Shown here: positions 15,649-47,651 of the stretch, piece after piece
Position numbering within the stretch: position 1 is the stretch's first letter
Layout of the letters: every line of letters starts with the position of its first letter
From: an uncultured Pseudomonadota bacterium
GTDB taxonomy: Bacteria > Pseudomonadota > Alphaproteobacteria > Rs-D84 > CACZYB01
Assembly (NCBI GenBank): GCA_902785275.1
Contig: CACZYB010000001.1
Span: 199,884-263,883, forward strand
Direction: 5' to 3'
Length of the DNA: 64,000 nt
The notes under the pieces: generated by a model
What the model was told of the DNA's origin: nothing
The model's database searches: none
What the model saw: the letters and a program-made list of their open reading frames with translations, nothing else
Made by a program: the position numbers and the translations under genes

Positions 15649-15664
15649 AAAACGAATCTTTTTA

Positions 15665-15940
15665 TTACCCACGAGGTCTATTATACGAAGACATCATAAT
15701 TTTTACTGTTCTCATTTTTTGTTCATCAGAATAGCAATCATTCATTTCATCATAAAATTTTGAAAACTTACAATACCCCAAATTTTTACATCTTGAAGCC
15801 AAATTATTCTTTTGATAAACAATACAATTTCTACATTGCATAACAAAAGAACGCTTCTTAATATTTGTTGCATCATCTTTATAAAAACCAGTGTATTTAA
15901 TAATCTTTGGACCTTTCACTTCTTTCATAATATACCCCAC
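15665..15940 (-). CDS. Small Cys-rich protein (6 Cys), function unknown
   Basis: 91-aa ORF (GTG start; the internal ATG at 15928 gives MKEVKG...). It is bracketed by its own terminators (15952-15987 upstream, 15620-15648 downstream). Confidence 0.5.
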   Translation of the reverse strand: MGYIMKEVKGPKIIKYTGFYKDDATNIKKRSFVMQCRNCIVYQKNNLASRCKNLGYCKFSKFYDEMNDCYSDEQKMRTVKIMMSSYNRPRG

Positions 15941-15951
15941 TTAATACGCTC

Positions 15952-15987
15952 AAAAAAAAGGGGGCAGAATAAAAAATTCTGTCGCCC
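15952..15987 (-). terminator. Rho-independent terminator after tig
   Basis: The minus strand reads GGGCGACAGAAT-TTTTTT-ATTCTGCCCCC followed by TTTTTTTT. Confidence 0.65.
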
Positions 15988-16007
15988 AATTTTTTTATAA
16001 TAAAAAA

Positions 16008-17312
16008 TTATTTTCTTACTTTCATAAGGTCAGATGCAGAAACTTCTTTTTCCTTCATCTTTACCTTCGAAAGGATAACATCCAAAACTTTATCTTCAAA
16101 AATACCAGCCTTAATACCTTCAGCAGCTTGAGGATTCTTTGTATAATATTCGAATACCTGTTGAGCTTGGTTTGGATATCTCATAGCTTCTTGCATAATT
16201 GCGTTTTGAATTTCGTTTTGATCAATCTTAATTTCGCTCTTCTTACCAATATCAGCAAGGATTAAACCAAGTTTAACACGAGAAGTAGCTTGTTTCTTAA
16301 GTTCTTCTTTCTTCTTTGCTTCTGCTTTTTCATCCATTTTTTCATTTGGATTTGCTTGTTTAAATTGAGCAAACATGAAATTAACTTCTTGATCAATCAA
16401 AGATTCTGGAACTTCGATTTTTTCATCAGCAAGCTTATCTAAAACTTCATCTTTCATAAGGTTTTTAGAAGCTGTTTCATAGTTTTGTTCCAAAAGTTCT
16501 TTTACATAAACTTTTAAATCAGCCAAATCTTTTCTTTTAAGATCAACAGCAAATTTATCATCTATTACTGGAACTTTCTTTTCTTTAATAGAATTGATTT
16601 TTACTTTGAATAAAGCTTTTGCACCAGCCAATTTTTCATGACCATAATCTTTTGGGAATTCAACGTTTACATCAACATCATCACCCTTTGATTTACCGAT
16701 AAGTTGATCTTCGAATCCAGGGATAAATGCACCACTACCAAGTTCAAGTGGATAATTATCAGCTTTACCACCTTCAAATTCAACACCATCAACAGAACCA
16801 ACAAAGTTGATATCAACAACATCACCTTTTTTAGTTTTTCTATCTTCTGTAACTTCTTCAAAAGTATATCTTGAATTTGCGATATTTTGGATTGCTTCAT
16901 CAATTTCTTTATCGCCAGCTTTTGCAACTTTCTTTTCAACAGAAATTTTTGAAAAATCGATATCTTTAATTTCTGGAATAATTTCAAAGTCAGCAGAGAA
17001 TTTTAATGGTTCATTTCTTACAAAGCTATCAACTTTTACTTGAGGAGCAACAGCAGGATTAATTTTCTTTTCTTCACAGTAAGAAACTAATGTTTCATTG
17101 ATAAGAGCGTTTAAAACATCACCAATGAAATGACCTTCGTATTTTGATCTAATAACATCCATAGGAACATGACCCTTACGGAAACCTTTTTCTTCATGAT
17201 TTTTTGCAAATTCAGCAAGTTGTTCATTTAATTTTGTTTCAAAAACATCTGCTGGGATTTCAAAAGATAATTCGTATTTAATACCTTTAATTTTTTCTTT
17301 TATTGGTTGCAT
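16008..17312 (-). CDS. tig: Trigger factor
   Basis: 434 aa with an N-terminal ribosome-binding region (GFRKGHVP), a central FKBP-type PPIase region (FEGGKADNYPLELGSGAFIPGFEDQLIG) and a helical C-terminus. Confidence 0.9.
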   Translation of the reverse strand: MQPIKEKIKGIKYELSFEIPADVFETKLNEQLAEFAKNHEEKGFRKGHVPMDVIRSKYEGHFIGDVLNALINETLVSYCEEKKINPAVAPQVKVDSFVRNEPLKFSADFEIIPEIKDIDFSKISVEKKVAKAGDKEIDEAIQNIANSRYTFEEVTEDRKTKKGDVVDINFVGSVDGVEFEGGKADNYPLELGSGAFIPGFEDQLIGKSKGDDVDVNVEFPKDYGHEKLAGAKALFKVKINSIKEKKVPVIDDKFAVDLKRKDLADLKVYVKELLEQNYETASKNLMKDEVLDKLADEKIEVPESLIDQEVNFMFAQFKQANPNEKMDEKAEAKKKEELKKQATSRVKLGLILADIGKKSEIKIDQNEIQNAIMQEAMRYPNQAQQVFEYYTKNPQAAEGIKAGIFEDKVLDVILSKVKMKEKEVSASDLMKVRK

Positions 17313-17438: not shown

Positions 17439-17547
17439 AAATTTCATTTAACACCGATTATTTATATCACAAAAAAAAATAATTTCCATAAAAAAAATTA
17501 AAATTTTTAAAAATATGTGTTATAATACCATTCGTCTGGAGGGGAAA

Positions 17548-18027
17548 ATGAGACGTTTTTTGTGTATCATATTGTTTTTATTCACAAATTTACATTCAGC
17601 ATACGCTGGAGAAGCTCGTTTTTCAGGTAATCCTATCCCTCGATTCGTTTCAATTGCAAAAACTCCTGCAAATACTCGTGTTGGTCCTGATATCAACTAT
17701 CCTGTAAAATTTGTATACCAATCAAAATACACTCCTGTAAGAGTTGTAAACGAATATTTCGGATGGTACCAAGTAGAAGATATAAATGGAGATCTTTCAT
17801 GGATACATAAAAATTCAATCGGAAAACCAAACTATGTTATGACACTACACGATGGTACAAAGCTTTATCAAAAGAAAAAATTAACCTCCAAAGTTATCGC
17901 AAAAGTTGATAAGGGAACCACATTCAAAGTGTTAAAATGTTCCTCTGGTTTTTGTAAGGTTGAAACCACTTTCAATGGAACATTATTTACCGGATATTTA
18001 ATTCAAGATAACCTATGGGGTATATAA
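17548..18027 (+). CDS. Secreted SH3-like domain protein (DUF1058-type)
   Basis: The start was moved to the ATG at 17548 (RBS GGAGGGG). Signal peptide MRRFLCIILFLFTNLHSAYA. RFVSIAKTPANTRVGPDINYPVKFVY...GWYQVEDINGDLSWIH is the bacterial SH3 pattern. Confidence 0.75.
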   Translation: MRRFLCIILFLFTNLHSAYAGEARFSGNPIPRFVSIAKTPANTRVGPDINYPVKFVYQSKYTPVRVVNEYFGWYQVEDINGDLSWIHKNSIGKPNYVMTLHDGTKLYQKKKLTSKVIAKVDKGTTFKVLKCSSGFCKVETTFNGTLFTGYLIQDNLWGI

Positions 18028-18031
18028 GGAT

Positions 18032-18223
18032 ATGAACATATATTCATCATTGGTTTTATATCTGATATTTTCCACATTTATGTTTATCCTAAACAAAGCA
18101 AATATCGATAGGTATAACCAAAAATGGATTCAATACACCTACCACGGATTAAAATACATTTTCTATCTATTTACATTAATAATTCTAATAAAAATAGTTT
18201 TGTTCATCATAAAAAATTCTTAA
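18032..18223 (+). CDS. Possible small two-TM membrane protein
   Basis: 63-aa ORF with two hydrophobic helices. It overlaps the recombinase 3' end by 17 nt and has no homology cue. Confidence 0.3.
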   Translation: MNIYSSLVLYLIFSTFMFILNKANIDRYNQKWIQYTYHGLKYIFYLFTLIILIKIVLFIIKNS

Positions 18224-18827
18224 TACTAAAATCTTTTCTAACCAAAAATCTATTAAGTGTTATAACAGAAACCCCGCATTTTCTTGCTATTTTTCTTTTT
18301 GAAACCTTTTGCACCATCATATCAAAAATAAATTTTTCTTTTCCTGTCAGTTTATAAATATTATTCTTACTTCCAACAGGCCGGCCAAGTTTCATCCCTT
18401 CTGATTTTCGTTTTGCCAAAGCTTCCCTTGTCCTTTCAGAAATACGTTCTCTTTCTATCTGAGCAGAAAAGGCAAACACCGTCATAATCATAAGACCTAT
18501 TGCAGTATTTCCCAGTTCCAAATTTTCCTTCAAACAAAAAACTCTAACTTCCTTATCCGCAAATATTTTTGCAAGGCTATACATATCAATCATACTTCGT
18601 GAAAGTCGGGAAAGTTCCGAAACAATAACATAATCCCCCTTTTTTAAAACCCTAAGAAGTTTACCTAAATTTCGTTTTTTATAATTTACCGTTCCACTTA
18701 CACCTTCATCGACATATTCTTTTGATATTTTTATGTCACGATATTCACAATATTTTATAATTCCATACCTTTGATTTTCATAATCTTGTTCTTCTGTTGA
18801 TACCCTTAAATAAGCATAAACCGTCAT
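18207..18827 (-). CDS. Serine recombinase (resolvase/invertase family) with C-terminal HTH
   Basis: The N-terminus MTVYAYLRVSTEEQDYENQ contains the catalytic Ser motif. Also present are ...SELSRLSRS..., ...ERERISERTREALA... and a C-terminal HTH (KIARKCGVSVITLNRFL). Confidence 0.85.
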   Translation of the reverse strand: MTVYAYLRVSTEEQDYENQRYGIIKYCEYRDIKISKEYVDEGVSGTVNYKKRNLGKLLRVLKKGDYVIVSELSRLSRSMIDMYSLAKIFADKEVRVFCLKENLELGNTAIGLMIMTVFAFSAQIERERISERTREALAKRKSEGMKLGRPVGSKNNIYKLTGKEKFIFDMMVQKVSKRKIARKCGVSVITLNRFLVRKDFSIKNFL

Positions 18828-18918
18828 TTTTTATTTTAATAAGCAAATACAAAAATTTAAAAGAACTTTCTTTGATAATTATATAGACGATTAAGACAAA
18901 GTCAAACCGTAAAAATAC

Positions 18919-18947
18919 CTTTCATTTTTCAAAAAAGGTGCTATAAT
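18919..18947 (+). promoter_or_regulatory. Extended -10 promoter for the 18970 gene
   Basis: TGcTATAAT at 18939-18947, with a weak -35. RBS GGAAGGAG lies upstream of the ATG at 18970. Confidence 0.5.
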
Positions 18948-18969
18948 AGGAAGGAGTAAGGAAACATTT

Positions 18970-19272
18970 ATGAAAAAAATGTTGTTTGCATTACTATTCT
19001 CTTTAAATGCATTAACAAATGTTTATGCACAAGTCCCAAGTTGGTATAATGGTGATATTGAACTTTATAATAAATTTATAAAAACTTGTAACATTGCACA
19101 AAAATCATGTCCCAATGAAACATATAATTGCAATAATGTAAAAAGTCAGGATGAGTTTTTTTCCTTAAACATTCGTGTCGGTTCATGTTTTCTTTCAATA
19201 AAAAATGAAACTATAAAATCTAGAGATTACACACCTAGCAGTGCAATAGGAGTAGCAAGCGTACGTGGATAA
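18970..19272 (+). CDS. Small secreted protein (5 Cys)
   Basis: Signal peptide MKKMLFALLFSLNALTNVYA and a good RBS. No homology cue. Confidence 0.6.
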   Translation: MKKMLFALLFSLNALTNVYAQVPSWYNGDIELYNKFIKTCNIAQKSCPNETYNCNNVKSQDEFFSLNIRVGSCFLSIKNETIKSRDYTPSSAIGVASVRG

Positions 19273-19276
19273 AGAA

Positions 19277-20146
19277 ATGAAAAAAATATTGGCAATATTA
19301 CTTGGAATAATTTCTTTTAACAGCACATCATTTGCTTATGACTTTTCCATTCTTCAATCAAAAATCGATAATGTAAAATCTGAATGTTCTGGAATAAAAT
19401 CAAGTCTTGATACAATCTTTGGTTTAAGTGTTGCAACAACTGTATCAAGTGGAATTGGAACATTAACTTCAACTGGTGCTTTGGTTGCAGGCCTTAAAAA
19501 AAGAACTCAAGATTATAAACTTGACGAAGAAACATTACATAATGATATTGATCGTTTCATAGAAGATTATAACGCCCTTACAGAGGATATAAAAAACTCT
19601 ATGAAAAAATCAGAAACACTTGGTAATGTTCGTTCTGCTTTACTTGCTGGAACAACTGTAACATCCGCTGTATCAACTGGAACATCAATCGGTACAACAT
19701 TAACCGCATCAAAGCTTGCAGAAAAAATGTCTAATTGTAACAAATCATTACAAGCATTAAAAATTGCAAAATCTTCTACCGAAAGCGAAACAGAAGACAG
19801 TCTTGAACCAATCGATAGTACAATAATAGAAATTGCAAAAAATATTTTATCCACCTGTATTGGCTATGATGAATCAAATATAAAATCACTTAAAAATTTT
19901 GCCACCGCAAACGCTGTTGTTTCTGGAATCGGCACTGGTATTTCTGGTGTTGGAACCGCAACATCAATCATGGCAAACAAAACAAAAGATAAAGAAAAAA
20001 ATAAAAAATTAGACACTGCTTCAAACATTTTATCTGGTGTTGCAATTGGCACATCTGGCACATCAACTACTCTTTCTGCTATTCAAATTTCGAAGGCTAA
20101 AAAAGACAGTTCCATAGCCGAAAAATGTGAAAATATTTTAAGATAA
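19277..20146 (+). CDS. Secreted protein with repeated Gly/Thr/Ser-rich segments
   Basis: The ATG at 19277 lies 5 nt after the previous stop. Signal peptide MKKILAILLGIISFNSTSFA. Recurrent segments: VSSGIGTLTSTGALVAG, TSAVSTGTSIGTTLT, VVSGIGTGISGVGTATS and GVAIGTSGTSTTLS. Confidence 0.65.
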   Translation: MKKILAILLGIISFNSTSFAYDFSILQSKIDNVKSECSGIKSSLDTIFGLSVATTVSSGIGTLTSTGALVAGLKKRTQDYKLDEETLHNDIDRFIEDYNALTEDIKNSMKKSETLGNVRSALLAGTTVTSAVSTGTSIGTTLTASKLAEKMSNCNKSLQALKIAKSSTESETEDSLEPIDSTIIEIAKNILSTCIGYDESNIKSLKNFATANAVVSGIGTGISGVGTATSIMANKTKDKEKNKKLDTASNILSGVAIGTSGTSTTLSAIQISKAKKDSSIAEKCENILR

Positions 20147-21489: not shown

Positions 21490-21498
21490 TTTTTTTGC

Positions 21499-21527
21499 TT
21501 GAAACTTAGAAAAATATTGGTTATATT
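21499..21527 (+). promoter_or_regulatory. Promoter of tRNA-Gly
   Basis: TTGAAA (21499-21504), a 17-nt spacer, then TATATT (21522-21527), 12 nt before the tRNA 5' end. Confidence 0.6.
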
Positions 21528-21539
21528 ATTTGCCATAGT

Positions 21540-21613
21540 GCGGGTGTAGCTCAATGGTAGAGTTCCAGCCTTCCAAGCTGGCCGTGAGGGTTCGATTCCC
21601 TTCACCCGCTCCA
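21540..21613 (+). tRNA. tRNA-Gly(UCC)
   Basis: GCGGGTGTAGCTCAATGGTAGAGTTCCAGCCTTCCAAGCTGGCCGTGAGGGTTCGATTCCCTTCACCCGCTCCA has anticodon loop CTTCCAA and an encoded CCA. Confidence 0.92.
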
Positions 21614-21615
21614 AA
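21598..21615 (+). repeat. attL core (3' end of tRNA-Gly)
   Basis: CCCTTCACCCGCTCCAAA, identical to 27070-27087. Confidence 0.85.
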
Positions 21616-21737
21616 GTTAAATCCTTGATTTTATTGCATTTTTTAGTTCATACTTTATGAAGAAGTATTTTTATACTTATTGCAAAACTCTTGTAAATAC
21701 AAATACTTAGCTTTTTGCTTATAAAGGGTTTTGGCGA

Positions 21738-23261
21738 ATGTTTGATAAGTGTGATGCAAAGTGTGATGCATTTGGTTTTAGGAATATCCCTCATTTGTGG
21801 TTGAGAAAGAATGTTTTTTATTGTAGAATAGAGTTGCCAAAGAAGGATAGCAAACGAAGATATGGACGTTATTCGTTGCATACAAATAATTATTATGAGG
21901 CTTTAACTAAAATGGATGGTATTAAGCAGTTTAATGTAAAGTTTAATAGATTGTGTGAATTGTATTCTCAAATAAGTGTTATTCGTAGAAATGTTGAGCA
22001 AATTCCAGGTCATGCAATAATGACATTTTATGTTCCGGATGAATTAGTGTTATCTCCAAATAATAAGCCTGAAACATTGATAGAATTTATAGAGTTATTT
22101 GCTGAAATAAAACAGGGTCTTGAAAGATATAATGTTAATAAAGAAGTTGCAAACAATCTTAAAACTATGGAAACTAAACTTAATTTAATTGAAAAAAAGT
22201 TAGGTCCTGAGGCTTTTGCAAAACTTATTCAAACTAATGCTCCACAAGTAAAAGAAACACCTAAACATACATTAAAAGAGATATTGGATATAATGCTTCT
22301 TAGAGCAAATAATAAAGAAGATGAAAAGACAAGAAAAAGGAACTTTTTAAGTAGTGTTTTTGATAGTGTAAATTTGAATTTAGAAAGCGATTATTTGGAT
22401 TTTTATAAGCCTGATATTATTTCTAAGATTTCAGAAAGTATTGTAAATAAGGTAGGTGTAAAGAATGATAATAGACGTCAAAAACTTAGATATATTACGG
22501 AATTTGTAAATTGCGCATGTAATGTAGAGCCTGATTTTTATAAGAATAACCTTATATTAAATTTGCCTAAAATAACAAAAACAAAGAAGAGTGATAGAAA
22601 ACCTCATTTGCCTTATTCTGAGGAACAACTTAAAGAAATATTTGATACAAAGCATAAGTTTTTTGATGAAAACCCGGATGTTTTTTGGATTTGTATGATT
22701 GCTTTGTTTACTGGTGCAAGGTTAAATGCAGCAACAACTTTACAATACGGAGATGTTTTTGAAAAAGATAAGATAAAATGTTTATATTTCCGTTCAAATC
22801 ATACTATAAAGCATTTGAAAAATGATGCAAGTGAAAGAATTGTTCCAATACACAAACAGTTATTAGATTTAGGATTTTGGAATTATGTAGAGCGTAGAAA
22901 AAAGAAATTAAAAGCAAAAGATGAAGATTTTATTTTCCCAAAATGTAAAACAAAAAGTGGTGAATACAATGACAGGTATATGTTAAGAACTTTGTTTGTA
23001 TTTTTGGAAGAACTTGATATTAAAGAAAAAGGTTTGGATTTCCATTCATTCCGTAAAAATGCCAGTCTTGCAATGCAATCTGCTGGTTTAGTTGCAAGTT
23101 GTATCAATAGAATTATTGGTTGGGAAGGAACTGGAACTATGGAGCAATCTTATTCCAATTACACATTACAACAGATAAATACAGAATTAAATAAGTTTAG
23201 TTATGATTACTTACAGACAGAGTTTGATGAGTGGGAAAAAATTATGGAGAAGAAGGATTAG
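21738..23261 (+). CDS. int: Tyrosine recombinase / phage-type integrase
   Basis: 507 aa. The N-terminus LWLRKNVFYCRIELPKKD...SLHTNNYYEA is an integrase arm-binding-type pattern. Catalytic residues: TGARLNAATTL (Arg), HSFRKN (HxxR) and YSNY (Tyr). Confidence 0.9.
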   Translation: MFDKCDAKCDAFGFRNIPHLWLRKNVFYCRIELPKKDSKRRYGRYSLHTNNYYEALTKMDGIKQFNVKFNRLCELYSQISVIRRNVEQIPGHAIMTFYVPDELVLSPNNKPETLIEFIELFAEIKQGLERYNVNKEVANNLKTMETKLNLIEKKLGPEAFAKLIQTNAPQVKETPKHTLKEILDIMLLRANNKEDEKTRKRNFLSSVFDSVNLNLESDYLDFYKPDIISKISESIVNKVGVKNDNRRQKLRYITEFVNCACNVEPDFYKNNLILNLPKITKTKKSDRKPHLPYSEEQLKEIFDTKHKFFDENPDVFWICMIALFTGARLNAATTLQYGDVFEKDKIKCLYFRSNHTIKHLKNDASERIVPIHKQLLDLGFWNYVERRKKKLKAKDEDFIFPKCKTKSGEYNDRYMLRTLFVFLEELDIKEKGLDFHSFRKNASLAMQSAGLVASCINRIIGWEGTGTMEQSYSNYTLQQINTELNKFSYDYLQTEFDEWEKIMEKKD

Positions 23262-23297
23262 TAGTAGTTGGTGACAAATTGTCATCAACTGAAGAAA

Positions 23298-23636
23298 TTA
23301 TTTCATTTCAAGTAATGCTTCAATCTGTTTTAGAATAATTTTTAATGTTTTATCGTCTTGTGTTTCTAGTAAACTTATAATGTGGTTTAATGTTTCATTA
23401 TTTGAAATATTATTTATAGGTGTATCAACCAATAAATCTTGAATCGAAATATTTAATGTTTTTGCAAAAGAATAAAGTGTTGTAATTCTTGGATCGGTAA
23501 GGCCTCTTTCAATATTTGAAACGGTATTTATCATTTTACCAGATAGTTCAGCAAAGTCTTCTTGGCTCATTCCTTTTTGTTTTCTTAAATTAGCAATATG
23601 TCTTCCAAGAGTTTGTAAAAATACTTTATCCATCAT
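23298..23636 (-). CDS. XRE/CI-Cro family HTH repressor
   Basis: LRKQKGMSQEDFAELSGKMINTVSNIERGLTDPRITTLYSFAKTLNISIQDLL is an HTH_3 pattern. The gene is divergent from the 23781 operon. Confidence 0.85.
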   Translation of the reverse strand: MMDKVFLQTLGRHIANLRKQKGMSQEDFAELSGKMINTVSNIERGLTDPRITTLYSFAKTLNISIQDLLVDTPINNISNNETLNHIISLLETQDDKTLKIILKQIEALLEMK

Positions 23637-23663
23637 AAAACCTCACTTTTATGATTTAATTTT

Positions 23664-23776
23664 CACATTAAAATGTGGAAAACACCATAGTGCTATAATG
23701 TGTATTTTTTAATTGACTTCTTTAATATTACACATTATAATGTGAATTGCACTTACAATACACATAAAGGAATGTG
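23664..23776. promoter_or_regulatory. Divergent switch region with three CACAT/ATGTG inverted-repeat operators
   Basis: CACAT-TAAA-ATGTG (23664-23677), CACAT-TATA-ATGTG (23731-23744) and CACAT-AAAGGA-ATGTG (23761-23776). TATAAT-like boxes overlap them. Confidence 0.7.
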
Positions 23777-23780
23777 AAAA

Positions 23781-24230
23781 ATGGATGAAATAATAAAAGA
23801 AAAAGTTTTGCAAGAAATTGGAATATTTAAACAAAACGAAGATATAAAAGTATCTGGAACTCAAAAATATTTTTTAGTTACTTTTGGTGTGGTTAAAAAT
23901 GTTAATCCAATAGAATTTCAAGTTATTGATGATAAAAACAAAAATATAACGATTCAGTATACTAATGCATTTGAAGGATTAGAATATCAACTACGTCAAG
24001 ATATTGAAGTTATAACAAGTATTATTGAAGATAAAACTGCGATAAAAAAACAATCAACAAAGTCTATAAATATATTTTTTCTTGTAGATAAAAATGGTAA
24101 ATTTAATGAACAGATTTTATCTAAAATTTATAAAATTGGTATAGAACAAGATATTGCAGCTTTAAACTTGTATAAAATACCTTTTAATGTCTTTGTAAAA
24201 GAAGTAAAAGATTTAAAACCTATAATTTAA
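23781..24230 (+). CDS. Element-encoded hypothetical protein
   Basis: 149-aa ORF, RBS AAGGAA, first gene rightward of the switch region. No motif recognised. Confidence 0.6.
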   Translation: MDEIIKEKVLQEIGIFKQNEDIKVSGTQKYFLVTFGVVKNVNPIEFQVIDDKNKNITIQYTNAFEGLEYQLRQDIEVITSIIEDKTAIKKQSTKSINIFFLVDKNGKFNEQILSKIYKIGIEQDIAALNLYKIPFNVFVKEVKDLKPII

Positions 24231-24250
24231 TCAAAGTAAAGGAAAAAATT

Positions 24251-25153
24251 ATGAAAAAATTTTTAATATTATTTAGCTTTATCTTAACATTTATTTTTAA
24301 ATTGGATGTAGCGTATGCAGAATCTCAAGAAAAATTAGAAGAAAAGATTGCTTATGTTTCAAATTTTCGTAAAAAAATTCATGAACTTAAGCCTGAACTG
24401 AATGATGAAGAGTTAGATGTTTTTAATACTCTTTCGCTTTCTATGATTTTTCACGACGAAGTTGTAAAAAATTGTAGTGAAGATGGAATTTTATCTGTAA
24501 GTGAAGATACTGTGTCACCTGGAATTATAAATTATTTACAAGTATTTATGAAAAAAGAAATAAATCCTCAATATTTTATGGAATATTATAATAGATTTAT
24601 TGATAATAGTGATGAATGTATTTTACAAAGAAGAAATAATAAAGGCCCAACATCTATTTGTTGGTTTGATTATAAAAGATTTCTTCCAAAAACATCAAAA
24701 ATAAAAACGGATAATGATTTCTTATATTTTTATAAAGCATATGATTTTTTTAGTGTTTCAAACTTTTGTAACAATACACAAGAATTAACAACAGCAGAAA
24801 GAAAAGAATGTAAGGAAAAATTTAGAAAATTTCTTGTCCAACTATCAAATAAAACAGCCCCACATTGTAGGGATATTATTCCAGGAGAGTACAAGAAACT
24901 TTTACAAGAAAGTAAAGATTTGTTGAAAACTGTTAATGATACTCGTATAGAAAATGCTTTGGGTCATGAAAAACAGCTTGAAACAATGATGTATCGTGCA
25001 ATGTATGGAAGTGCATATGAAAAGGCAGCAATTGAAGCATTGCAAAATATGGGATTTAGAAATTTCTGTATAGTTGAAGGTTTTGAAGAAGATTTAAAGA
25101 AAATACAAGGTAAAAATATTTATAAAAAAATTGAAAGTATTGAATTAAATTAG
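24251..25153 (+). CDS. Element-encoded secreted Cys-containing protein
   Basis: Signal peptide MKKFLILFSFILTFIFKLDVAYA, RBS AAGGAAA, 8 Cys in the mature part. No motif recognised. Confidence 0.65.
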   Translation: MKKFLILFSFILTFIFKLDVAYAESQEKLEEKIAYVSNFRKKIHELKPELNDEELDVFNTLSLSMIFHDEVVKNCSEDGILSVSEDTVSPGIINYLQVFMKKEINPQYFMEYYNRFIDNSDECILQRRNNKGPTSICWFDYKRFLPKTSKIKTDNDFLYFYKAYDFFSVSNFCNNTQELTTAERKECKEKFRKFLVQLSNKTAPHCRDIIPGEYKKLLQESKDLLKTVNDTRIENALGHEKQLETMMYRAMYGSAYEKAAIEALQNMGFRNFCIVEGFEEDLKKIQGKNIYKKIESIELN

Positions 25154-25174
25154 TATTTAAATATAAAATAAAAA

Positions 25175-25207
25175 ACTTCGTATCTCTAATGACACGAGGT
25201 TTTTTTA
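25175..25207 (+). terminator. Rho-independent terminator
   Basis: ACTTCGT-N12-ACGAGGT followed by TTTTTTT. Confidence 0.6.
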
Positions 25208-25349
25208 TGTGTATTTCTGGATAGAAAACGTTTTCTTAAAAATTTGTTAATACTTAGAGATAACAAATAATTGAAATCCCCAATTCTAAATAAAGGATGT
25301 GAATGGCTGTTTTTAGCCAATTTTGTTGCATTTTTATGCGTTTTTTTGT

Positions 25350-25377
25350 GTGCTTTTAAGGGAAAAACTGGGATAAT
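25350..25377 (+). promoter_or_regulatory. Promoter of the 25410 gene; shares the TAAGGGAAAAAC spacer motif with 26925-26952
   Basis: GTGCTT, then tTAAGGGAAAAACtgg, then GATAAT, about 30 nt upstream of the ATG at 25410. Confidence 0.45.
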
Positions 25378-25409
25378 AGCTATGTAAAACAAAAAAGAAA
25401 GGCTTAAAA

Positions 25410-25658
25410 ATGTTAAAGAAATTTGAAAATTGGTTGCTACAAAATAATTATAAACCTAATACTGCAAAGGATTACCAATATAGAATAAAGCGTGTATGTA
25501 AAAAAGAAAATATTAGTTTGGATATGCTTGTAGAAAATATAAATAATTTATTGCCAGAATATGAATTAAGTGGAATGAAAGCTGAGTATGGAAAAACTAG
25601 CCATGAAAGTGTTAAACAAGCATTGCGTAGATTTAATAAGTTTTTAATGCAAGCATAA
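25410..25658 (+). CDS. Small element-encoded protein (82 aa)
   Basis: RBS AAAGG. FENWLLQNNYKPNTAKDYQYRIKRV weakly resembles integrase SAM-like/core-binding N-terminal domains. A role such as directionality factor is only a guess. Confidence 0.55.
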   Translation: MLKKFENWLLQNNYKPNTAKDYQYRIKRVCKKENISLDMLVENINNLLPEYELSGMKAEYGKTSHESVKQALRRFNKFLMQA

Positions 25659-25686
25659 TTAAATATTATTTAGATTAAAAATAATG

Positions 25687-25715
25687 AACCAGGATTGATT
25701 GAATTTAGTCCTGGT
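25687..25715. terminator. Bidirectional hairpin between convergent element genes
   Basis: AACCAGGA-N13-TCCTGGTT followed by a T-rich tract. Confidence 0.6.
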
Positions 25716-25757
25716 TTATATTTTATAAAGAAAAGATTTTATGAATTTAGAATTGAT

Positions 25758-26348
25758 TTAATTGAATATTTGATAATCGAAGATGATGTTGTCGGTATTA
25801 GAGAATTGCATATCGTTTGATTGAATTAATGTGAATTCTTTGGATAGATATTCGGCGATGCCGTTTGTATTAAATATAGGAGAAATTACGATATTGTCTG
25901 GATATTGATTGGATGGTTTAAAATTTTTATTTGTTTTTAATGAAACGGACATGTGTAATTTATTTTGTAATGAAAAAAGAGTGTTTATAAGGTCGCCGGT
26001 TGTAAATTTATTTGATTTGAGCCCTAAAATAACGTGAGCATGAAAATTTGTATTAGATTGGCCTTGCTCTTGAACAGCAATAAAAATAAAATGTTTTTGA
26101 TATAATTTGAACCAATGTGAACCTAATAATTTATTGAATATTTGATTAAACATTGTATGAAGTTTGCTTATAAGTTGAGCTTGGGTTGTAGGGGGATTAT
26201 AAAACCAACGAATACTAAAAAATAAACCATTACTGCTTAGTGAGGAGGAGAACCAGCTTGTAATGGTTTGGATGCTTTGCATATTTTTGCAGAATTGTGT
26301 TGAATGTTGAGAAAGAGATTTTATTTTTTTAAACTTAGATTTATACAT
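25758..26348 (-). CDS. HUH-type rolling-circle Rep / relaxase-like protein (candidate)
   Basis: 196 aa with NFHAHVILG (His-hydrophobic-His plus hydrophobic run, aa 102-110) followed by IAEYLSKE (YxxK, aa 164-171). It is adjacent to the repeat-rich non-coding region. Confidence 0.55.
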   Translation of the reverse strand: MYKSKFKKIKSLSQHSTQFCKNMQSIQTITSWFSSSLSSNGLFFSIRWFYNPPTTQAQLISKLHTMFNQIFNKLLGSHWFKLYQKHFIFIAVQEQGQSNTNFHAHVILGLKSNKFTTGDLINTLFSLQNKLHMSVSLKTNKNFKPSNQYPDNIVISPIFNTNGIAEYLSKEFTLIQSNDMQFSNTDNIIFDYQIFN

Positions 26349-26403
26349 TTTATTTATTTTTATATTTATTGTTAGTTAGTATTATTTTTTGCATAATAAT
26401 ATT

Positions 26404-26609
26404 TACTATATAAAAATACTATATAGTTTTTAAATTTACAAATTAAGTATCTACACTACCTTCGTATTTGACCAATAAGGGCCTATACTATATAGAACTG
26501 TGAAAATTTTTTATTTTTGGGGATTTTTAATTTTTTTTATTTGGAATTTTTATATATGATTTATTTTTTTTATTAATATTAGAAAATAAAAAATAATGTT
26601 TATATAGTA
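26404..26609. repeat. Four copies of TACTATATA (three direct, one inverted) upstream of the Rep-like gene
   Basis: Direct copies at 26404-26412, 26417-26425 and 26486-26494. The inverted copy TATATAGTA is at 26601-26609. Confidence 0.7.
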
Positions 26610-26790
26610 TATACAATGAGTTAGAAGATTTTTGTGTCGGGGTTTTTAATGAAATTTAGATAAAATAAGAGGAAAAATATATAAAAAACCCCTTAGAAAT
26701 GAAGGTTTAATATGTAGTGATTTTTTGATGTTTTTAAAAAACACTTCCTATAAGACGCGTTTTTTTAGGGGCTAAAATTGGGTTTTTATG
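26519..26790 (+). repeat. Spaced GGGG(N)TTTTTAAT-like motifs, iteron-like
   Basis: GGGGATTTTTAAT at 26519, GGGGTTTTTAAT at 26639 (120 bp later), and GGGGCTAAAATTGGGTTTTTAT at 26768. Confidence 0.5.
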
Positions 26791-26843
26791 AAGTTTTTGA
26801 AGAAAATTTTTTGAAAAAATATTTTAATGAAAAATGTTGAAAA

Positions 26844-26878
26844 TATGGGGGAGGAGAGGGGGAGCCAGGGTCCCATAT
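26844..26878. repeat. G-rich tract enclosed by the inverted repeat ATATGGG / CCCATAT
   Basis: aaATATGGGGGAGGAGAGGGGGAGCCAGGGTCCCATATtt is a conspicuous GC island in otherwise AT-rich non-coding DNA. Confidence 0.6.
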
Positions 26879-26924
26879 TTTTATGCTTTTAATGTAAAAT
26901 TTAAAATTTATTAAAAAAACTTGT

Positions 26925-26952
26925 TTGCTTTAAGGGAAAAACGTTTTATAAT
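26925..26952 (+). promoter_or_regulatory. Outward-facing promoter near attR (candidate)
   Basis: TTGCTT, then TAAGGGAAAAACgttt (16 nt), then TATAAT (26947-26952), pointing toward attR with no ORF downstream inside the element. Confidence 0.45.
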
Positions 26953-27069
26953 AAGTGTGATGCAATTAGTGATGCAGTAAGTATGTATGGCTAAAAATAA
27001 TTGCGTGAAAAGTTAGAGATTTGGTTGGTTTTGGTGTTGTGTAAAGGCTTAATTTTTAGATGAGTTATA

Positions 27070-27087
27070 CCCTTCACCCGCTCCAAA
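27070..27087 (+). repeat. attR core (duplicated tRNA-Gly 3' end)
   Basis: CCCTTCACCCGCTCCAAA, identical to 21598-21615. Confidence 0.85.
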
Positions 27088-27093
27088 ATCAGA

Positions 27094-27115
27094 AGTGGCA
27101 ATCGCCACTTTTTTT
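27094..27115 (+). terminator. Displaced tRNA-Gly terminator
   Basis: AGTGGCAATCGCCACT followed by TTTTTTT, 7 nt after attR. Confidence 0.75.
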
Positions 27116-34408: not shown

Positions 34409-36250
34409 TTAACGTTTTACATACTTAAGTAAAGCAGTCAAGCCCGCAGGTGTCATACCAGGAATTCTTGATGCACTTGCCAAAGTTGTAGGTTTTGCCT
34501 TTTCAAGCTTTGCTCTCAACTCCAAATTAAGACCACCGATTTTACTATAATCTATATTATAAGGAATAGTCAATTCTTGATCTTTTTTATACGAAGCAAT
34601 ATCTTGTTCCTGACGTTTAAGATAACCTTGATACTTTCCCTCAATTTCAACTTGTTTAACAATATTATATGGAAAATCATTTACTTCTGGGAACATAGTT
34701 TTTATTTTATCCATATCTATATCACTATATTTCAATGCTTCATAAGCATTTACCCCAGCGGCACCACAACCTTCACAATCAACAAGTCTAAGCTTTTTAT
34801 TATTAACTTTTTTTGCCTTCAAAAGATTTTTCAAACTTTCAATTTGTTTCATCTTTTCATTGAAAAGTTTTTCTCTCTTTTTTCCAACACAACCAATTTT
34901 CAAACCTATTGGTGTAAGTCTTTGATCGGCATTATCTGCCCTTATACTTAATCTATATTCTGATCTTGCGGTAAACATTCTGTATGGTTCATCAACACCA
35001 AGTGTTGTAATATCATCAACTAAAACACCAATATAAGCCTGACTTCTATCAAGTATAATTTCATCTTCACCCTTTGCAAAAAGCCCTGCATTAAGTCCTG
35101 CTAAAATACCCTGAGATGCAGCTTCTTCATAACCACTTGTTCCATTTATCTGACCTGCAAAATAAAGTCCATTAATACGTTTTGAACCAAGTGTTGGTTT
35201 AAGCTCTCTTGCATCAATCGCATCATATTCAATCGCATAACCATAACGAAGAATTTTAACATTCTCCAATCCCTTTATAGAGTGGATAAAATCTTCTTGC
35301 ACATCCTTTGGTAAAGACGTTGAAATACCATTAGGATAAATCACATCCGAACCATAACCTTCTTGTTCCAAAAATATATGATGACTTGGGTGTGAAGCAA
35401 ATCTAACAACCTTATCTTCAATACTTGGACAATATCTTGGCCCAATAGATTTTATCTGACCATTATAAAGTGGAGTTCTATCCTTATTATCAGTAATAAT
35501 CTTATGTGTTTTTTCATTTGTATAAGTTATATAACAAGGAAGTAACTCTTGTGAAATCTTCTCTGTCATATAAGAAAAAGCTTCCGGAGGATTATCACTT
35601 TCTTGACACTCTAAACCATCATAATTTATAGTAGCCATAGAAAGCCTTGCTGGTGTTCCAGTTTTAAGTCTTAATATTTCAAATCCTGCTTTTTTCAAGG
35701 ATTCTGTAATACCATAACTTGCCTTTTCACCAATTCTTCCACCTTTAGTTTGTTCTTCACCGGTATGCATAACACCGTTTAAGAAAGTACCTGTTGTAAT
35801 GACAACTGATTTACATTTTATTTCTCCGTTATTTTTAAGAACTACCCCTTTAACAGAAGAAAACTTCTCATCAAACAAAATTTCAACAGCTTCATCTTCA
35901 ATAATAGTCAAAGTTTCTTGCTCTGCCAAAATTTCATTCACAGCCTTTTTATACAAAGCTCTATCCGCCTGTGCTCTTGGTCCTTGAACCGCAGCACCCT
36001 TTGATGCATTAAGAACTCTAAATTGTGTACCAGCTTTATCAATAGCCCTTGCCATAACACCATCTAAAGCATCAATTTCACGAACCAAATGCCCCTTTCC
36101 AAGACCACCAATAGAAGGGTTACAAGACATTTCACCAATGTTTGTTTTCATAAAAGTAACAAGTGCTGTTTTAAGACCTAATCTTGCCGATGCAGAACTT
36201 GCTTCTATACCGGCATGACCGCCACCAATAACTACGACATCATAATCCAT
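34409..36250 (-). CDS. mnmG: tRNA uridine 5-carboxymethylaminomethyl modification enzyme MnmG (GidA)
   Basis: The start was moved to the ATG at 36250 (MDYDVVVIGGGHAGIEA). The sequence is conserved GidA throughout. Confidence 0.92.
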   Translation of the reverse strand: MDYDVVVIGGGHAGIEASSASARLGLKTALVTFMKTNIGEMSCNPSIGGLGKGHLVREIDALDGVMARAIDKAGTQFRVLNASKGAAVQGPRAQADRALYKKAVNEILAEQETLTIIEDEAVEILFDEKFSSVKGVVLKNNGEIKCKSVVITTGTFLNGVMHTGEEQTKGGRIGEKASYGITESLKKAGFEILRLKTGTPARLSMATINYDGLECQESDNPPEAFSYMTEKISQELLPCYITYTNEKTHKIITDNKDRTPLYNGQIKSIGPRYCPSIEDKVVRFASHPSHHIFLEQEGYGSDVIYPNGISTSLPKDVQEDFIHSIKGLENVKILRYGYAIEYDAIDARELKPTLGSKRINGLYFAGQINGTSGYEEAASQGILAGLNAGLFAKGEDEIILDRSQAYIGVLVDDITTLGVDEPYRMFTARSEYRLSIRADNADQRLTPIGLKIGCVGKKREKLFNEKMKQIESLKNLLKAKKVNNKKLRLVDCEGCGAAGVNAYEALKYSDIDMDKIKTMFPEVNDFPYNIVKQVEIEGKYQGYLKRQEQDIASYKKDQELTIPYNIDYSKIGGLNLELRAKLEKAKPTTLASASRIPGMTPAGLTALLKYVKR

Positions 36251-36343
36251 TTTTTGCCTCAAATATTCAGATAAAATATAAGCCTTATTATAACAATAAC
36301 AAGGCAAATATCAACTGTTTTTATAAATTAATAATTAAAATTA

Positions 36344-41700: not shown

Positions 41701-42402
41701 TTACCAAGCCTTACAAAGATTTTTTACTCTCTGATATTCTTCTTTGCTATCATAGGTATTATTATTTTCAATCAAAGCCTTTTCTAGCTTTGATCTTAAG
41801 ATTTTTATGTTCCTATTTTCGAACACCATTTTTTGAATTTCATTCCCAAGTTTTTTTTCTGAAATCTTTTCATCAAAAAACATCGGACCAACATCACTTG
41901 CAATACGTCTAAGCTCTTTTAAGATTAACGAACCATAATATTTAAGTTCTTTTCTGTAAATAGCAACATGTCCCAATTCATGCTCTTTTATCGCATTATA
42001 TTCACAACTACCCTCTTCATATTTATCATCTATAAGCACATCAATATTCTTGTATCCTATAGTAAAATTAATATTGGAAAGTATCGCACAAATACCATCA
42101 TTTATTTTATATCTTCCAAAACCGAAGTCATATTTAATACCAAAATTCGACTTTGTAAGACCCAAAGTAGCTTTTGGGTTTTTTAAATTTTTTAAATCAG
42201 AAATTTCCTCTCTTGGTACCGATTTAACAACAACATTACCATACTTTATTTGTGTTGTAACATTAGGTTCCTTATAGAAAGTTTCACAAAGTTCATTTGC
42301 ATAAACAGGCAATGAAAAATATAAAAAGCCGGCTATTTTCAAAGTTTTTATGACAAAATTACTTAAAAGAGTCAAGATAAACCTCCACAAATTTATCTCC
42401 AT
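41701..42402 (-). CDS. Secreted HExxH metalloprotease-like protein (DUF922-like)
   Basis: IKEHELGHVAIY contains an HExxH motif. A signal-like segment KIAGFLYFSLPVYA is present. The track start overlaps virB4 by 44 nt, and a TTG at 42342 would remove the overlap. Confidence 0.6.
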   Translation of the reverse strand: MEINLWRFILTLLSNFVIKTLKIAGFLYFSLPVYANELCETFYKEPNVTTQIKYGNVVVKSVPREEISDLKNLKNPKATLGLTKSNFGIKYDFGFGRYKINDGICAILSNINFTIGYKNIDVLIDDKYEEGSCEYNAIKEHELGHVAIYRKELKYYGSLILKELRRIASDVGPMFFDEKISEKKLGNEIQKMVFENRNIKILRSKLEKALIENNNTYDSKEEYQRVKNLCKAW

Positions 42403-46766: not shown

Positions 46767-47651
46767 TTATATATTATTTAGTTTTGTGGTTATGTTGTTA
46801 AGTTCAGACAAATCATTAAACTTAATAACAATTTCACCTTTCTTACCTTTAAGTTTAATATCTACTTTTGCATTCAAGGTATCAGAAAGATTTTCACGTA
46901 AAGAGATTAACTCACTTGTAAGTTCATTTGACTCTTCAGAAGAAGTTTCATTTTTCTTTACAGGTTTTACTATATCCTCTGCTTCCTTAACTGTCATATC
47001 ACCTTTCAATATTGATTTTGCCATCTTTATTGGATTTTCTTTTCCAACTAAAGTTCTTGCAATACTGTATGAAAGATCTCCATTATTAACCATATCTTGA
47101 ACTTCCTGAGGAAGATAAAGAAGTCTTAAAACATTTGCAATGTATGAACGGCTTTTATTAACTATCTTTGCAATATCTTCCTGAGTGTAATCAAAAGAGT
47201 TCATAAGTTTCTTGTAACCATTAGCTTCTTCGATAGGTGAAAGATTTTCTCTTTGTAAATTTTCAATCAAACCTATCTCAAAAGTTTCTTTATCTGATAA
47301 TTCTTTGATTATAGCTGGAATTTCAGTTATTCCAGCAAAAGTACTAGCTCTCCATCTTCTTTCACCAGCAATAATTTCATACATATTTGGCTGGGTTTTT
47401 AGTTCTCTAACTAAAATTGGTTGTAAAACACCATTTTTTTCAATAGATGAAGCTAATTCTTTTAATTGATCTTCCTTAAAATTTTTTCTTGGCTGATCTT
47501 TATTTGGAACTATATTACCAACAGGAATATATTTTATATCACCCTGCTCTACTTCTGTCTCTGAATTTGGATTTTTAAAAACAGGAACTTCTTTTTGCTT
47601 ATTTTCAAAAAAAGTTGATAAACCTTTTCCTAATCTTGACTCTACTTTCAT
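46767..47651 (-). CDS. parB: Chromosome partitioning protein ParB/Spo0J
   Basis: NKDQPRKNF...GVLQPILVR...IIAGERRWRAS and an HTH region (DIAKIVNKSRSYIANVLRLL). Confidence 0.92.
   Translation of the reverse strand: MKVESRLGKGLSTFFENKQKEVPVFKNPNSETEVEQGDIKYIPVGNIVPNKDQPRKNFKEDQLKELASSIEKNGVLQPILVRELKTQPNMYEIIAGERRWRASTFAGITEIPAIIKELSDKETFEIGLIENLQRENLSPIEEANGYKKLMNSFDYTQEDIAKIVNKSRSYIANVLRLLYLPQEVQDMVNNGDLSYSIARTLVGKENPIKMAKSILKGDMTVKEAEDIVKPVKKNETSSEESNELTSELISLRENLSDTLNAKVDIKLKGKKGEIVIKFNDLSELNNITTKLNNI

Follow-up and report, generated by a model that had tools for sequence, protein, structure and literature searches.

A compact integrative element at tRNA-Gly in an uncultured alphaproteobacterium combines a tyrosine integrase with a very small predicted HUH Rep-type nuclease

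In a 64-kb stretch of DNA from an uncultured alphaproteobacterium (the window; all coordinates given without a locus label refer to it), the 3′-end of a tRNA-Gly(UCC) gene is repeated exactly further downstream, and six open reading frames (ORFs) lie between the two copies, among them a tyrosine integrase and a 196-aa protein with HUH and YxxK motifs. All six ORFs are present as described in the initial annotation, which had proposed a compact integrative element that is neither an obvious prophage nor an integrative and conjugative element (ICE). The question raised by this locus is how a unit that carries recombination and putative nicking functions, and none of the usual transfer genes, could leave the chromosome and reach other hosts. 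The comparisons described here indicate that the 5,472-bp unit (unique DNA plus one copy of the repeat) is very probably a site-specific integrative mobile element, and the explanation which we favour on balance is that it is excised, replicated by the Rep-like protein in the rolling-circle mode and mobilized by a helper system. It belongs to a previously undescribed family, in which an integrating recombinase is combined with a very small HUH Rep protein and often with anti-phage defence genes.

Boundaries of the element and occupancy of its site

The ends of the element are marked by the following features:

21540..21613, + strand: tRNA-Gly(UCC), the integration target, whose 3′-end is regenerated by the element (ARAGORN; Rfam tRNA, 69.4 bits)
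21598..21615, + strand: attL core, left copy of the 18-nt direct repeat (exact repeat; 0 chance matches expected)
27070..27087, + strand: attR core, right 18-nt copy, the displaced original 3′-end of the tRNA (homology with L001/L002 ends exactly here)
27091..27112: terminator of the host tRNA-Gly, outside the element (hairpin readable on both strands)

The 18-mer CCCTTCACCCGCTCCAAA, which consists of the final 16 nt of tRNA-Gly followed by AA, was found at exactly two positions of the 64-kb window, 21598–21615 and 27070–27087, and had no match in 100 shuffles with up to two mismatches permitted, which confirmed the repeat as it had been reported. In the arrangement characteristic of tRNA targeting, the tRNA 3′-end is repeated at both ends of the element and the tRNA gene is intact at one of them. 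The terminator that the initial annotation had placed just outside the right repeat was also recovered, as a GC-rich hairpin with a T-run located 4 nt past the repeat, and its position there fits an element having split the tRNA from its terminator. Excision would join the ends across the circle in the predicted attP, GATGAGTTATA-CCCTTCACCCGCTCCAAA-GTTAAATCCTTG, and leave behind the predicted restored attB, GGTTCGATT-CCCTTCACCCGCTCCAAA-ATCAGAAGTGGC.

Related loci were collected by genome and metagenome searches and are referred to by L-numbers (L001, etc.). L001, a 7.9-kb contig of the metagenome-assembled genome (MAG) E19__bin253, carries the element at tRNA-Gly(tcc), and its Rep (the 196-aa protein) and p82 (the 82-aa product of the element) are 99% and 91% identical to those of the window, respectively. 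The DNA of L001 is 95–96% identical to the window over 21491–23267 and 25201–27087, its homology stops exactly at 27087, and neither flank is related to that of the window. In L100/L101, element and cargo are again those of the window (96% identity), but identity falls to 72% in the adjoining outer membrane protein (OMP) gene, and a different set of genes lies farther upstream. In L013 (MAG RUI239, a related species), whose flanking genes were the nearest to those of the window among the genomes searched, tRNA-Gly(ccc) follows 37 nt after tRNA-Gly(tcc) and the integrase is absent, that is, the site is empty. Occupancy thus varies, with an empty tRNA-Gly site in a related species and copies of ~95–96% identity in other genomic contexts, and the proposal of the initial annotation, which would have failed had all relatives carried the same 5.5 kb at this site, survived the comparison. 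The ~96% identity of the element, its exchanged cargo, the diverged flanks and the empty site together argue that the element is mobile and was recently transferred horizontally. At 100% identity the element is carried by samples ERZ1029115 / ERR3275099, and one assembly, in which the locus was split at the two flanking tRNAs, was judged uninformative.

The sequence that directly follows the tRNA in L001 and in the possibly empty L014, TCAAATCCTTGATTTTAC, matches the inner side of attL, so attP seems to carry a longer copy of the tRNA-Gly trailer. In positions 1–214 of L001, the right repeat is followed by GTTAACTCCTTGATTTTAC, which is akin to the inner side of attL, and unrelated sequence comes afterwards; the right end of L001 is either an imperfect repeat of ~37 nt or a second, different element in tandem.

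Rep is a predicted single-tyrosine HUH nuclease

The gene on which the proposed replication and transfer of the element would depend is the following:

25758..26348, − strand: minimal HUH rolling-circle Rep/relaxase-like endonuclease of 196 aa (Rep)

The motifs recognized earlier in this protein were found as HAH at residues 103–105 and Y167-x-x-K170, and they are invariant across the family: in an alignment of 26 relatives with identities down to 20%, only six residues, E94, H103, H105, Y167, K170, and E171, do not vary. The last of these lies four residues past Y167 and offers a possible parallel to the Glu/Tyr pair in the active site of pC194 RepA. Five relatives of Rep were detected by a word-indexed search of 5.8 billion clusters, and 32 clusters at E ≤ 1e-3 by a profile search of 1.84 billion representative proteins. 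Scanned singly, 22 of the 26 relatives matched PF23343 (REP_ORF2-G2P) at E ≤ 0.1, with a best E of 4.6e-7, and no other Pfam family was reached by them; a long-form relative of 331 aa in L092 scored 27.7 bits against the PF23343 cutoff of 27.8.

The AlphaFold2 model of Rep had a pLDDT of 38 when built from 6 sequences and of 88.4 when built from the 26-sequence alignment. In the model the HUH motif is located on the central β-strand 102–110 and Y167 on helix 161–169. Comparison with the PDB by Foldseek gave the nuclease domain of wheat dwarf virus Rep as the top match (probability 0.98), with parvovirus NS1, vientovirus and circovirus Rep, adeno-associated virus Rep, and the Helitron nuclease as further matches, while the named matches in BFVD (probability ~1.0) were gpA, ORF2/G2P-domain proteins, a microvirus initiator, and CRESS Reps. 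Structural resemblance to HUH endonucleases, without which the initial annotation would have given up its proposal, was therefore found in a model of pLDDT 88 with Rep nuclease domains at the top of the Foldseek matches. Motifs and predicted fold together indicate that Rep is a divergent single-tyrosine HUH Rep-type nuclease outside the curated families, and it is likely to nick DNA actively, with the neighbouring non-coding region as its target.

The rep gene showed a mosaic structure among the relatives: the protein P0002 of L084 is identical to the window Rep over approximately residues 27–93, diverges just before HUH and then follows P0005. A stop codon was read inside the first 26 codons of L084 rep (1821–2351), for which reason translation of the window Rep may actually begin at M23.

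Integrase, candidate origin and p82 suggest a route from excision to transfer

The remaining parts of the proposed excision and replication machinery are the following:

21738..23261, + strand: tyrosine integrase of 507 aa (PF00589, E = 1.4e-9; PHROG 1 integrase, E = 2e-19)
21747..21770, + strand: candidate arm-type integrase sites, two copies of AAGTGTGATGCA with 12-nt spacing, overlapping the start of int (putative function)
26953..26976, + strand: second candidate arm-type pair, AAGTGTGATGCA and ATTAGTGATGCA, in the same orientation as the left pair
26349..27069: AT-rich non-coding region of 721 bp, proposed origin and P′ arm of attP (no contained ORF of at least 40 aa; GC skew +0.48)
26450..26500, − strand: conserved block upstream of rep, candidate nick site/double-strand origin (TTCTAT at 26492–26497)
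25410..25658, + strand: p82, 82 aa (67–91% identical in loci whose Rep is ~50% identical; weak Pfam matches to Phage_int_SAM_5, 3e-4, and SAM_1, 7.7e-3)
25684..25719: hairpin terminator with a 15-pair stem between the convergent p82 and rep genes

The integrase scored 38.5 bits with PF00589, above the Pfam cutoff of 27.1, and showed a weak Pfam match to DUF6538 at its N-terminus. The R/HxxR/Y residues noted earlier were borne out by this match and by the catalytic candidates R328, H436-x-x-R439, W462, and Y472/475, and with this predicted R..HxxR..Y set the protein is an intact tyrosine recombinase. Its identity is 97% in L001 and 60% in L009, where the integrase adjoins tRNA-Leu. Searches of PDB sequences with the integrase and with the p82 profile gave nothing meaningful. 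The motif GTGATGCA is present in 10 copies in the window against 1.24 expected and forms two pairs, at 21751/21763 and 26957/26969, each spaced by 12 nt and in identical orientation. With the left pair placed 135 nt inward from attL, across the start codon of int, and the right pair 95 nt inward from attR, they are the strongest candidates for arm-type sites of the integrase.

The initial annotation had described the 0.7 kb between rep and the right repeat as repeat-dense non-coding DNA, of which the non-coding part held. The clearly non-random repeats are only the two GTGATGCA pairs, one near each end of the element, and besides them a few weak AT-rich tandem repeats were seen, so the description as repeat-dense goes too far. 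A 51-nt block at 26450–26500 could be aligned with L008/L009, while the neighbouring DNA was barely alignable. On the rep-sense strand, TTCTAT occurs 77–237 nt upstream of rep in eight of eight independent groups (Poisson P ~2e-5) and the longer form RTTCTATDT in six of the eight (chance 0.04 each), which makes the block containing it a candidate nick site or origin. The whole non-coding region folded only marginally better than shuffles on both strands (z ~−1.7). An iteron-like motif, GGGNTTTTTAW, was also tried and was not enriched. At 26840–26881, the arms AAAATATGGG / CCCATATTTT can pair into a perfect stem of 10 bp around a loop of 22 nt rich in purines, GGAGGAGAGGGGGAGCCAGGGT, and this structure could be a single-strand origin or a protein-binding site.

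The int-sense strand is strongly G-rich, with a GC skew of +0.41 in rep and +0.48 in the non-coding region, and the coding-strand skew of rep is the most negative among the 50 window ORFs of at least 150 aa. This pattern is repeated in L001, and the non-coding region of L084 is skewed too, but no such skew is present in rep of L084, L009, or L004. An element-wide GC skew was considered as a sign of a single-stranded stage and rejected, since the extreme skew of rep and the non-coding region is peculiar to one sublineage (window/L001/L084) and is not seen in L009 and L004.

Along its full length, p82 is weakly similar to the SAM-like (core-binding) domain of integrases, and it is the most conserved protein of the family, being 67–72% identical where Rep is ~50% identical. 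It accompanies Rep with either a tyrosine or a serine recombinase, and because it stays with Rep whatever the recombinase is, it was assigned to the Rep/origin function and not to excision. We propose, on the basis of this linkage, that p82 is a DNA-binding accessory factor of Rep.

These features can be arranged in the following course of events. The integrase would bind the core and the GTGATGCA arm sites and recombine attL with attR, which would release a 5.47-kb circle. On the circle, Rep would nick one strand at the RTTCTAT-containing block located ~150 nt upstream of rep, probably with the assistance of p82 as a small SAM-like DNA-binding protein, would remain linked to the DNA via Y167 and would prime rolling-circle synthesis by host enzymes. 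Replication of this type would prevent the loss of the excised circle and would yield single-stranded DNA, the most likely transfer form, for which export via a helper type IV secretion or conjugation system is favoured, the mode proposed for streptococcal integrative mobilizable elements with Rep-like relaxases. The slot between int and p82 holds exchangeable cargo, represented in the window by XRE, p149, and the putatively secreted p300.

The p82–Rep module occurs with different recombinases and cargo

Genome and metagenome searches with p82 and Rep yielded ~30 loci. The genome hits (15 of 15) were MAGs of uncultured Alphaproteobacteria from the gut of ruminants, humans, and other animals, and the relatives of the flanking OMP gene include many Ca. 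Enterousia MAGs, a lineage with genomes below 1 Mb (PMC12306168). The word 'mobile' is absent from that paper on these small-genome lineages. As far as these searches show, the family does not extend beyond uncultured Alphaproteobacteria of the gut that have relatives in Rs-D84 (Ca. Enterousia), an order with small genomes. Relatives of Rep and p82 were found neither in 2.9 million IMG/VR viral contigs nor among the PLSDB plasmids, and the 50,697 phage records of INPHARED contained no credible one, the lone match having E = 8e-3 over 33% of the query. We know of no plasmids or phages described from Rs-D84 and its relatives.

The constant unit of the family is formed by p82, the convergent rep, and the AT-rich non-coding region, and Rep was always linked to p82 and to a site-specific recombinase. 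DUF3768, on which no paper was found by literature search, is often located between p82 and rep, and a p300 homologue is often located upstream of p82. The recombinases and their tRNA targets, four in all, were distributed as follows:

tyrosine integrase at tRNA-Gly(tcc): window, L001, L100
tyrosine integrase at tRNA-Leu(taa): L009/L115, L111
tyrosine integrase (remnant) at tRNA-Thr(tgt): L119
large serine recombinase at tRNA-Thr(ggt): L090, L092, L109, L110, L113 (split gene, L112)
large serine recombinase, no adjacent tRNA identified: L098, L102

An exact 22-nt repeat of the tRNA-Thr 3′-end, with copies 10.9 kb apart, was found in L092, and truncated p82 and integrase remnants were seen in L107, L118, and L119. 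The int–p82 slot of the relatives often contains restriction-modification, Abi, or OLD-like defence genes, and the following cargo was recorded:

L004: AbiJ and type I HsdR
L084: AbiJ and PLDc_2
L092: MmeI-like restriction-modification and DUF6602
L102: AAA_15/DUF2813 (OLD-like) and Dam
L082: AAA_15/AAA_21

The XRE–p149–p300 cassette

In the window, the slot is delimited and occupied by the following features:

23270..23286: conserved palindrome GGTGACAAATTGTCATC after the int stop, left edge of the cassette (kept in window, L100, and L001)
23298..23636, − strand: XRE-family repressor of 112 aa, within the variable cassette (HTH_3, E = 5e-15)
23650..23741: divergent control region with the palindrome TTCACATTAAAATGTGGAA at 23662–23680 and a promoter-like TTGACT-17-TATAAT at 23713–23741 (putative operator/promoter)
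23781..24230, + strand: p149, cargo protein of 149 aa with no recognizable family
24251..25153, + strand: p300, 300 aa (N-terminal signal peptide and several cysteines, judged from the sequence)
25201..25409, + strand: conserved region upstream of p82 with a hairpin at 25304–25319, right edge of the cassette (L001 homology resumes at 25201)

The exchangeable cassette extends from the palindrome following int to the conserved region upstream of p82 (23268–25200), the latter being conserved also with L084 and L009. In L001, an HNH protein and two D12 methyltransferases are found instead of XRE–p149–p300. The CI-like switch of the initial annotation stands as far as the XRE repressor is concerned, but not as a switch of the backbone: the gene is borne by the cassette and is absent from L001, whose backbone is 95% identical, by which a backbone lysogeny-type switch was ruled out. 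The top NCBIfam match of XRE was the RstR family, below the cutoff (48.6 vs 80 bits). Most simply, XRE regulates the adjacent p149–p300 operon; the promoter in the XRE/p149 intergenic region matches a sigma-70-like sequence at 11 of 12 positions and faces p149. A fused HTH_3 + Peptidase_M78 (ImmA/IrrE-like) protein is encoded near the integrase of L009, a tRNA-Leu member (15651–16772), and some members of the family may have a cleavable-repressor induction switch that is not present in the window element.

The p149 gene was found only in window-type copies (L081, L100, L101, and L120), and its product had no significant family in four libraries, the Pfam matches having E values of at least 0.012, below the cutoff. 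The two-gene cargo operon described earlier was retained for p149 as cargo. It was not retained for p300 as free cargo, since homologues of p300 stand beside p82 in several distant members (L008, L089, L098, L102, L105, L114, and L115), and by this distribution p300 appears to be a recurrent accessory gene of the family. Only eight database relatives of p300 were found, all of them unnamed. The signal peptide and the cysteines suggest that the protein is probably secreted, and no defence annotation was obtained for p149 or p300 with PADLOC. At 11456–15386 of L098, the gene order is a p300 homologue, an unknown protein of 542 aa, and a Slam outer-membrane protein (PF04575 at 6.7e-40). Slam is a surface lipoprotein assembly modifier, and this neighbourhood hints that p300-like proteins may be surface-exposed.

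Transfer route and rival explanations

No capsid, tail, Zot, coupling-protein, or MOB relaxase family was detected in the element with Pfam, PHROGs, NCBIfam, and PADLOC, and the statement that it is neither a prophage nor an ICE stands. As in integrative mobilizable elements (IMEs; sensu Guedon et al. 2017), its own integrase is present and no type IV secretion system (T4SS), coupling-protein, or MOB family was matched by the six proteins (Pfam, PHROGs, NCBIfam); the Rep-like HUH protein is the potential relaxase, and there is no recognizable oriT. An inovirus-type prophage is not indicated, as neither a Zot-like ATPase nor a coat family was found (Pfam, PHROGs), nor is a phage-inducible chromosomal island, as the six proteins include no primase-helicase or packaging/capsid-redirection families (Pfam, PHROGs). 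With actinomycete integrative and conjugative elements (AICEs), Int and Rep alone are in common, and no FtsK/Tra or Xis match was obtained (Pfam, PHROGs). The initial annotation had left open whether the element is an integrated rolling-circle replicon, a satellite, or an IME with the HUH protein as relaxase. It had also pointed to host T4SS genes in the window as a possible route, and of these, a VirB4 homologue (42359–44794), and VirB4 alone, was recovered by family search. Transfer by conjugative mobilization is suggested by analogy and should be regarded as a tentative proposal.

Several observations count against the explanation by excision, rolling-circle replication and helper-mediated mobilization. 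The host T4SS may be a secretion rather than a conjugative system, the element encodes neither a coupling protein nor an excisionase, and no recognizable oriT was found in it. The TTCTAT motif was picked after viewing the data, and the candidate nick site does not fold into a significant hairpin (z +0.9 to −1.2). With PF23343, the window Rep itself scored 16.7 bits (E = 0.009), under the gathering threshold of 27.8 bits, thus its sequence marks it as a distant relative and, by the Pfam rule, not as a member of this family; the TM-scores of its Foldseek matches were modest (0.3–0.48), and a profile search of PDB sequences with Rep gave nothing. No circular or attP-junction contig was found, the recovered contigs all being integrated or fragmentary. 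An empty site within the same species was not found either, as exact look-ups of the flanking proteins and p82 recovered contigs that were all occupied and 100% identical, and no direct repeats were found for the tRNA-Leu members (L009/L115, L111).

Some of these points would suit an integrated rolling-circle replicon without dedicated transfer, in which Rep only maintains the excised circle and spread is passive, by transformation, vesicles, or generalised transduction. The actinomycete Rep of the pSAM2 type indeed replicates and maintains the excised circle of a tRNA-parked element. By sequence and fold, the nearest family of the window Rep consists of replication initiators and not of MOB relaxases, neither a coupling protein nor a MOB gene is present, rep is immediately preceded by a conserved non-coding block in the manner of rolling-circle-replicating (RCR) plasmids, and the restriction-modification/Abi cargo could double as addiction modules (PMC5704250). 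However, no free circular contig of the family was found in metagenome, genome, or viral collections, the PLSDB plasmids contained no relative, and the ~96% identity across hosts with flanks of ~72% points to an efficient transfer route, which leaves the passive replicon an unlikely, if serious, alternative. It seems quite improbable that the element is a satellite or a stripped integrative relative of a single-stranded DNA (ssDNA) phage of the inovirus, plectrovirus, or microvirus type, whose Rep-made ssDNA circles would be packaged by a helper in the way that the ssDNA circles of the RS1 and TLC satellites of Vibrio cholerae are packaged by their helper phage. No morphogenesis (Zot-like), coat, or receptor-binding gene is present, no helper phage is known for the host lineage, Rep and p82 have no relative in IMG/VR and one marginal match in INPHARED, and XRE is missing from the L001 backbone. 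These findings have to be set against the facts that the only Pfam family touched by the Rep relatives comprises ssDNA-phage initiators (REP_ORF2-G2P), that microvirus and gpA-type Reps are among the named structural matches, and that the best NCBIfam match of XRE is the RstR family, though below the cutoff. In favour of this reading, too, Pf-type filamentous prophages are known to be inserted at tRNA-Gly by a tyrosine integrase.

Finally, the truncated p82/integrase remnants in L107, L118, and L119 and the absence of junction evidence would be compatible with a decaying, immobile island, in which the repeat is a relic and the rep-like gene is either carried along without activity or codes for an HUH transposase (IS200/IS605 or IS91 type) that has nothing to do with the element's mobility. 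This explanation deserves very little credence considering that the six ORFs are intact and the repeat is perfect in the window copy, that the element is ~96% identical across diverged hosts, that the catalytic residues are invariant in the 26 relatives, and that Rep always occurs with p82 and a site-specific recombinase. Moreover, no transposase family was obtained for Rep in Pfam or PHROGs, and the sole transposase among the top 50 PDB fold matches was the Helitron nuclease at rank 15.

Comparison with known integrative elements

Regarded as an integrative element with Rep-driven replication and helper-mediated mobilization, the unit has its closest documented design in the streptococcal IMEs. 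RCR-initiator-like putative relaxases are encoded by 118 of 144 of these, and 35 of the 118 lack a coupling protein (PMC5704250, PMC5357655). Their non-canonical relaxase classes are Rep_2, PHA00330, Viral_Rep, and MobT/Rep_trans, and in Tn916 and ICEBs1 the relaxase also initiates replication of the element after excision (PMC5357655, PMC5704250). Like the streptococcal IMEs, the window element is compact, has a site-specific integrase acting at the 3′-end of a conserved gene, and carries a small HUH protein akin to phage and plasmid initiators in the place of a MOB relaxase; mating-pore genes are lacking, recombinases and cargo are swapped in a modular manner, and restriction-modification genes occur as cargo. 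The Rep-like proteins are putative relaxases in both groups. The absence of a coupling protein is shared with the sizeable minority of the streptococcal IMEs mentioned above, and no TcpA-type coupling protein was seen in any examined member of the element's family. In contrast to the streptococcal IMEs, the host is a Gram-negative, small-genome alphaproteobacterium and not a Firmicute, the Rep family is different and far smaller (~190 aa, one tyrosine, sub-threshold relation to PF23343), and p82 is present always, DUF3768 and p300 often, with which the streptococcal elements have not been reported.

AICEs of the pSAM2/SLP1 type combine a tyrosine integrase at a tRNA gene, an HUH Rep that replicates the excised circle, and small size with an FtsK-like Tra for double-stranded transfer, Xis, and spread genes. 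The window element resembles them in the tRNA-gene tyrosine integrase, the HUH rolling-circle Rep, and the small size, but it has no FtsK-like Tra, Xis, or spread genes, comes from another host phylum, and shows no detected sequence relation in Rep. With integrative filamentous prophages and satellites (Pf-type, CTXphi/RS1, TLC), it has in common an HUH initiator of the G2P/ORF2 superfamily, an XRE repressor, and chromosomal integration, whereas coat, Zot-like, and receptor-binding genes and relatives in viral collections are lacking and the repressor lies outside the conserved backbone. Tycheposons and pipolins unite tRNA targeting with a self-replication module of the primase/helicase or primer-independent PolB type. 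The window element resembles them in tRNA targeting and in having a putative self-replication module, for which it uses an HUH nickase instead, and no common proteins were detected here. Like the window element, tycheposons (bioRxiv 10.1101/2020.12.28.424599) and pipolins (PMC11551731) are described as integrative elements with exchangeable cargo or defence genes.

The design of an integrase, an HUH Rep-like protein, and cargo at a tRNA gene is thus already known, and what is new is the tiny, rare Rep family with its remote tie to PF23343, its obligatory partner of 82 aa, the interchangeable use of tyrosine and serine recombinases with one and the same module, and the host lineage. The 'integrase plus Rep-like nickase' design, mainly known from Firmicutes and Actinobacteria, is hereby extended to Alphaproteobacteria with an unusually small Rep, and active, recent horizontal transfer becomes evident in very small (<1 Mb) uncultured gut alphaproteobacterial genomes. 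The family can be viewed as a compact chassis composed of a recombinase, a cargo slot, and the p82–Rep–origin module. Since the slot often contains restriction, Abi, or OLD-like systems, it is a place to seek new defence genes, including XRE–p149–p300, and the minimal Rep with its 82-aa partner represents an easily testable pair for HUH biochemistry. As a more speculative extension, which we put forward with considerable reserve, p82–Rep–origin could be a new and self-contained minimal rolling-circle initiator/relaxase family (~175–200 aa, one tyrosine, obligatory SAM-like partner), coupled interchangeably to tyrosine or serine recombinases, and the main vehicle moving defence systems and secreted proteins among the sub-megabase, genomes of uncultured, possibly partner-dependent gut Alphaproteobacteria (Rs-D84 and relatives).

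Neighbourhood of the element

To the right of the element, the relatives L010–L013 are syntenic with the window only from tRNA-Ser (27255) rightwards, and behind the OMP gene of L013 stand tRNA-Gly(tcc), tRNA-Gly(ccc), and tRNA-Asn. By these limits of synteny and the gene order of L013, the two flanks of the element are adjacent only in the window genome, which points to a rearrangement at a tRNA cluster. L011/L012 have 1.7–2.4 kb of additional DNA between a Mic60-like gene and tRNA-Ser. Homologues of the alphaproteobacterial OMP gene are also carried by L072, a 716-kb chromosome labelled Muribaculaceae, and by L051, labelled Bacteroides fragilis. In L072, tRNA-Ile(gat) is located ~2 kb downstream of the OMP gene, as in several Alphaproteobacteria and Ca. 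Enterousia loci, and both L072 and L051 are probably mislabelled or contaminated bins.

To the left, the region between tRNA-Leu(tag) and the OMP gene (17515–20146) encodes an SH3-domain protein, a small serine resolvase, and a 293-aa unknown protein, and may be the remnant of another mobile element. The resolvase (18207–18827, − strand; PF00239 at 6.9e-35) has the top coding-strand GC skew in the window and is 36–37% identical to the small resolvases adjoining the p82 modules in L098 and L102. The window also encodes GidA/MnmG (34409–36307) and ParB (46767–47651) besides the VirB4 homologue, and it may be near the chromosomal origin region.

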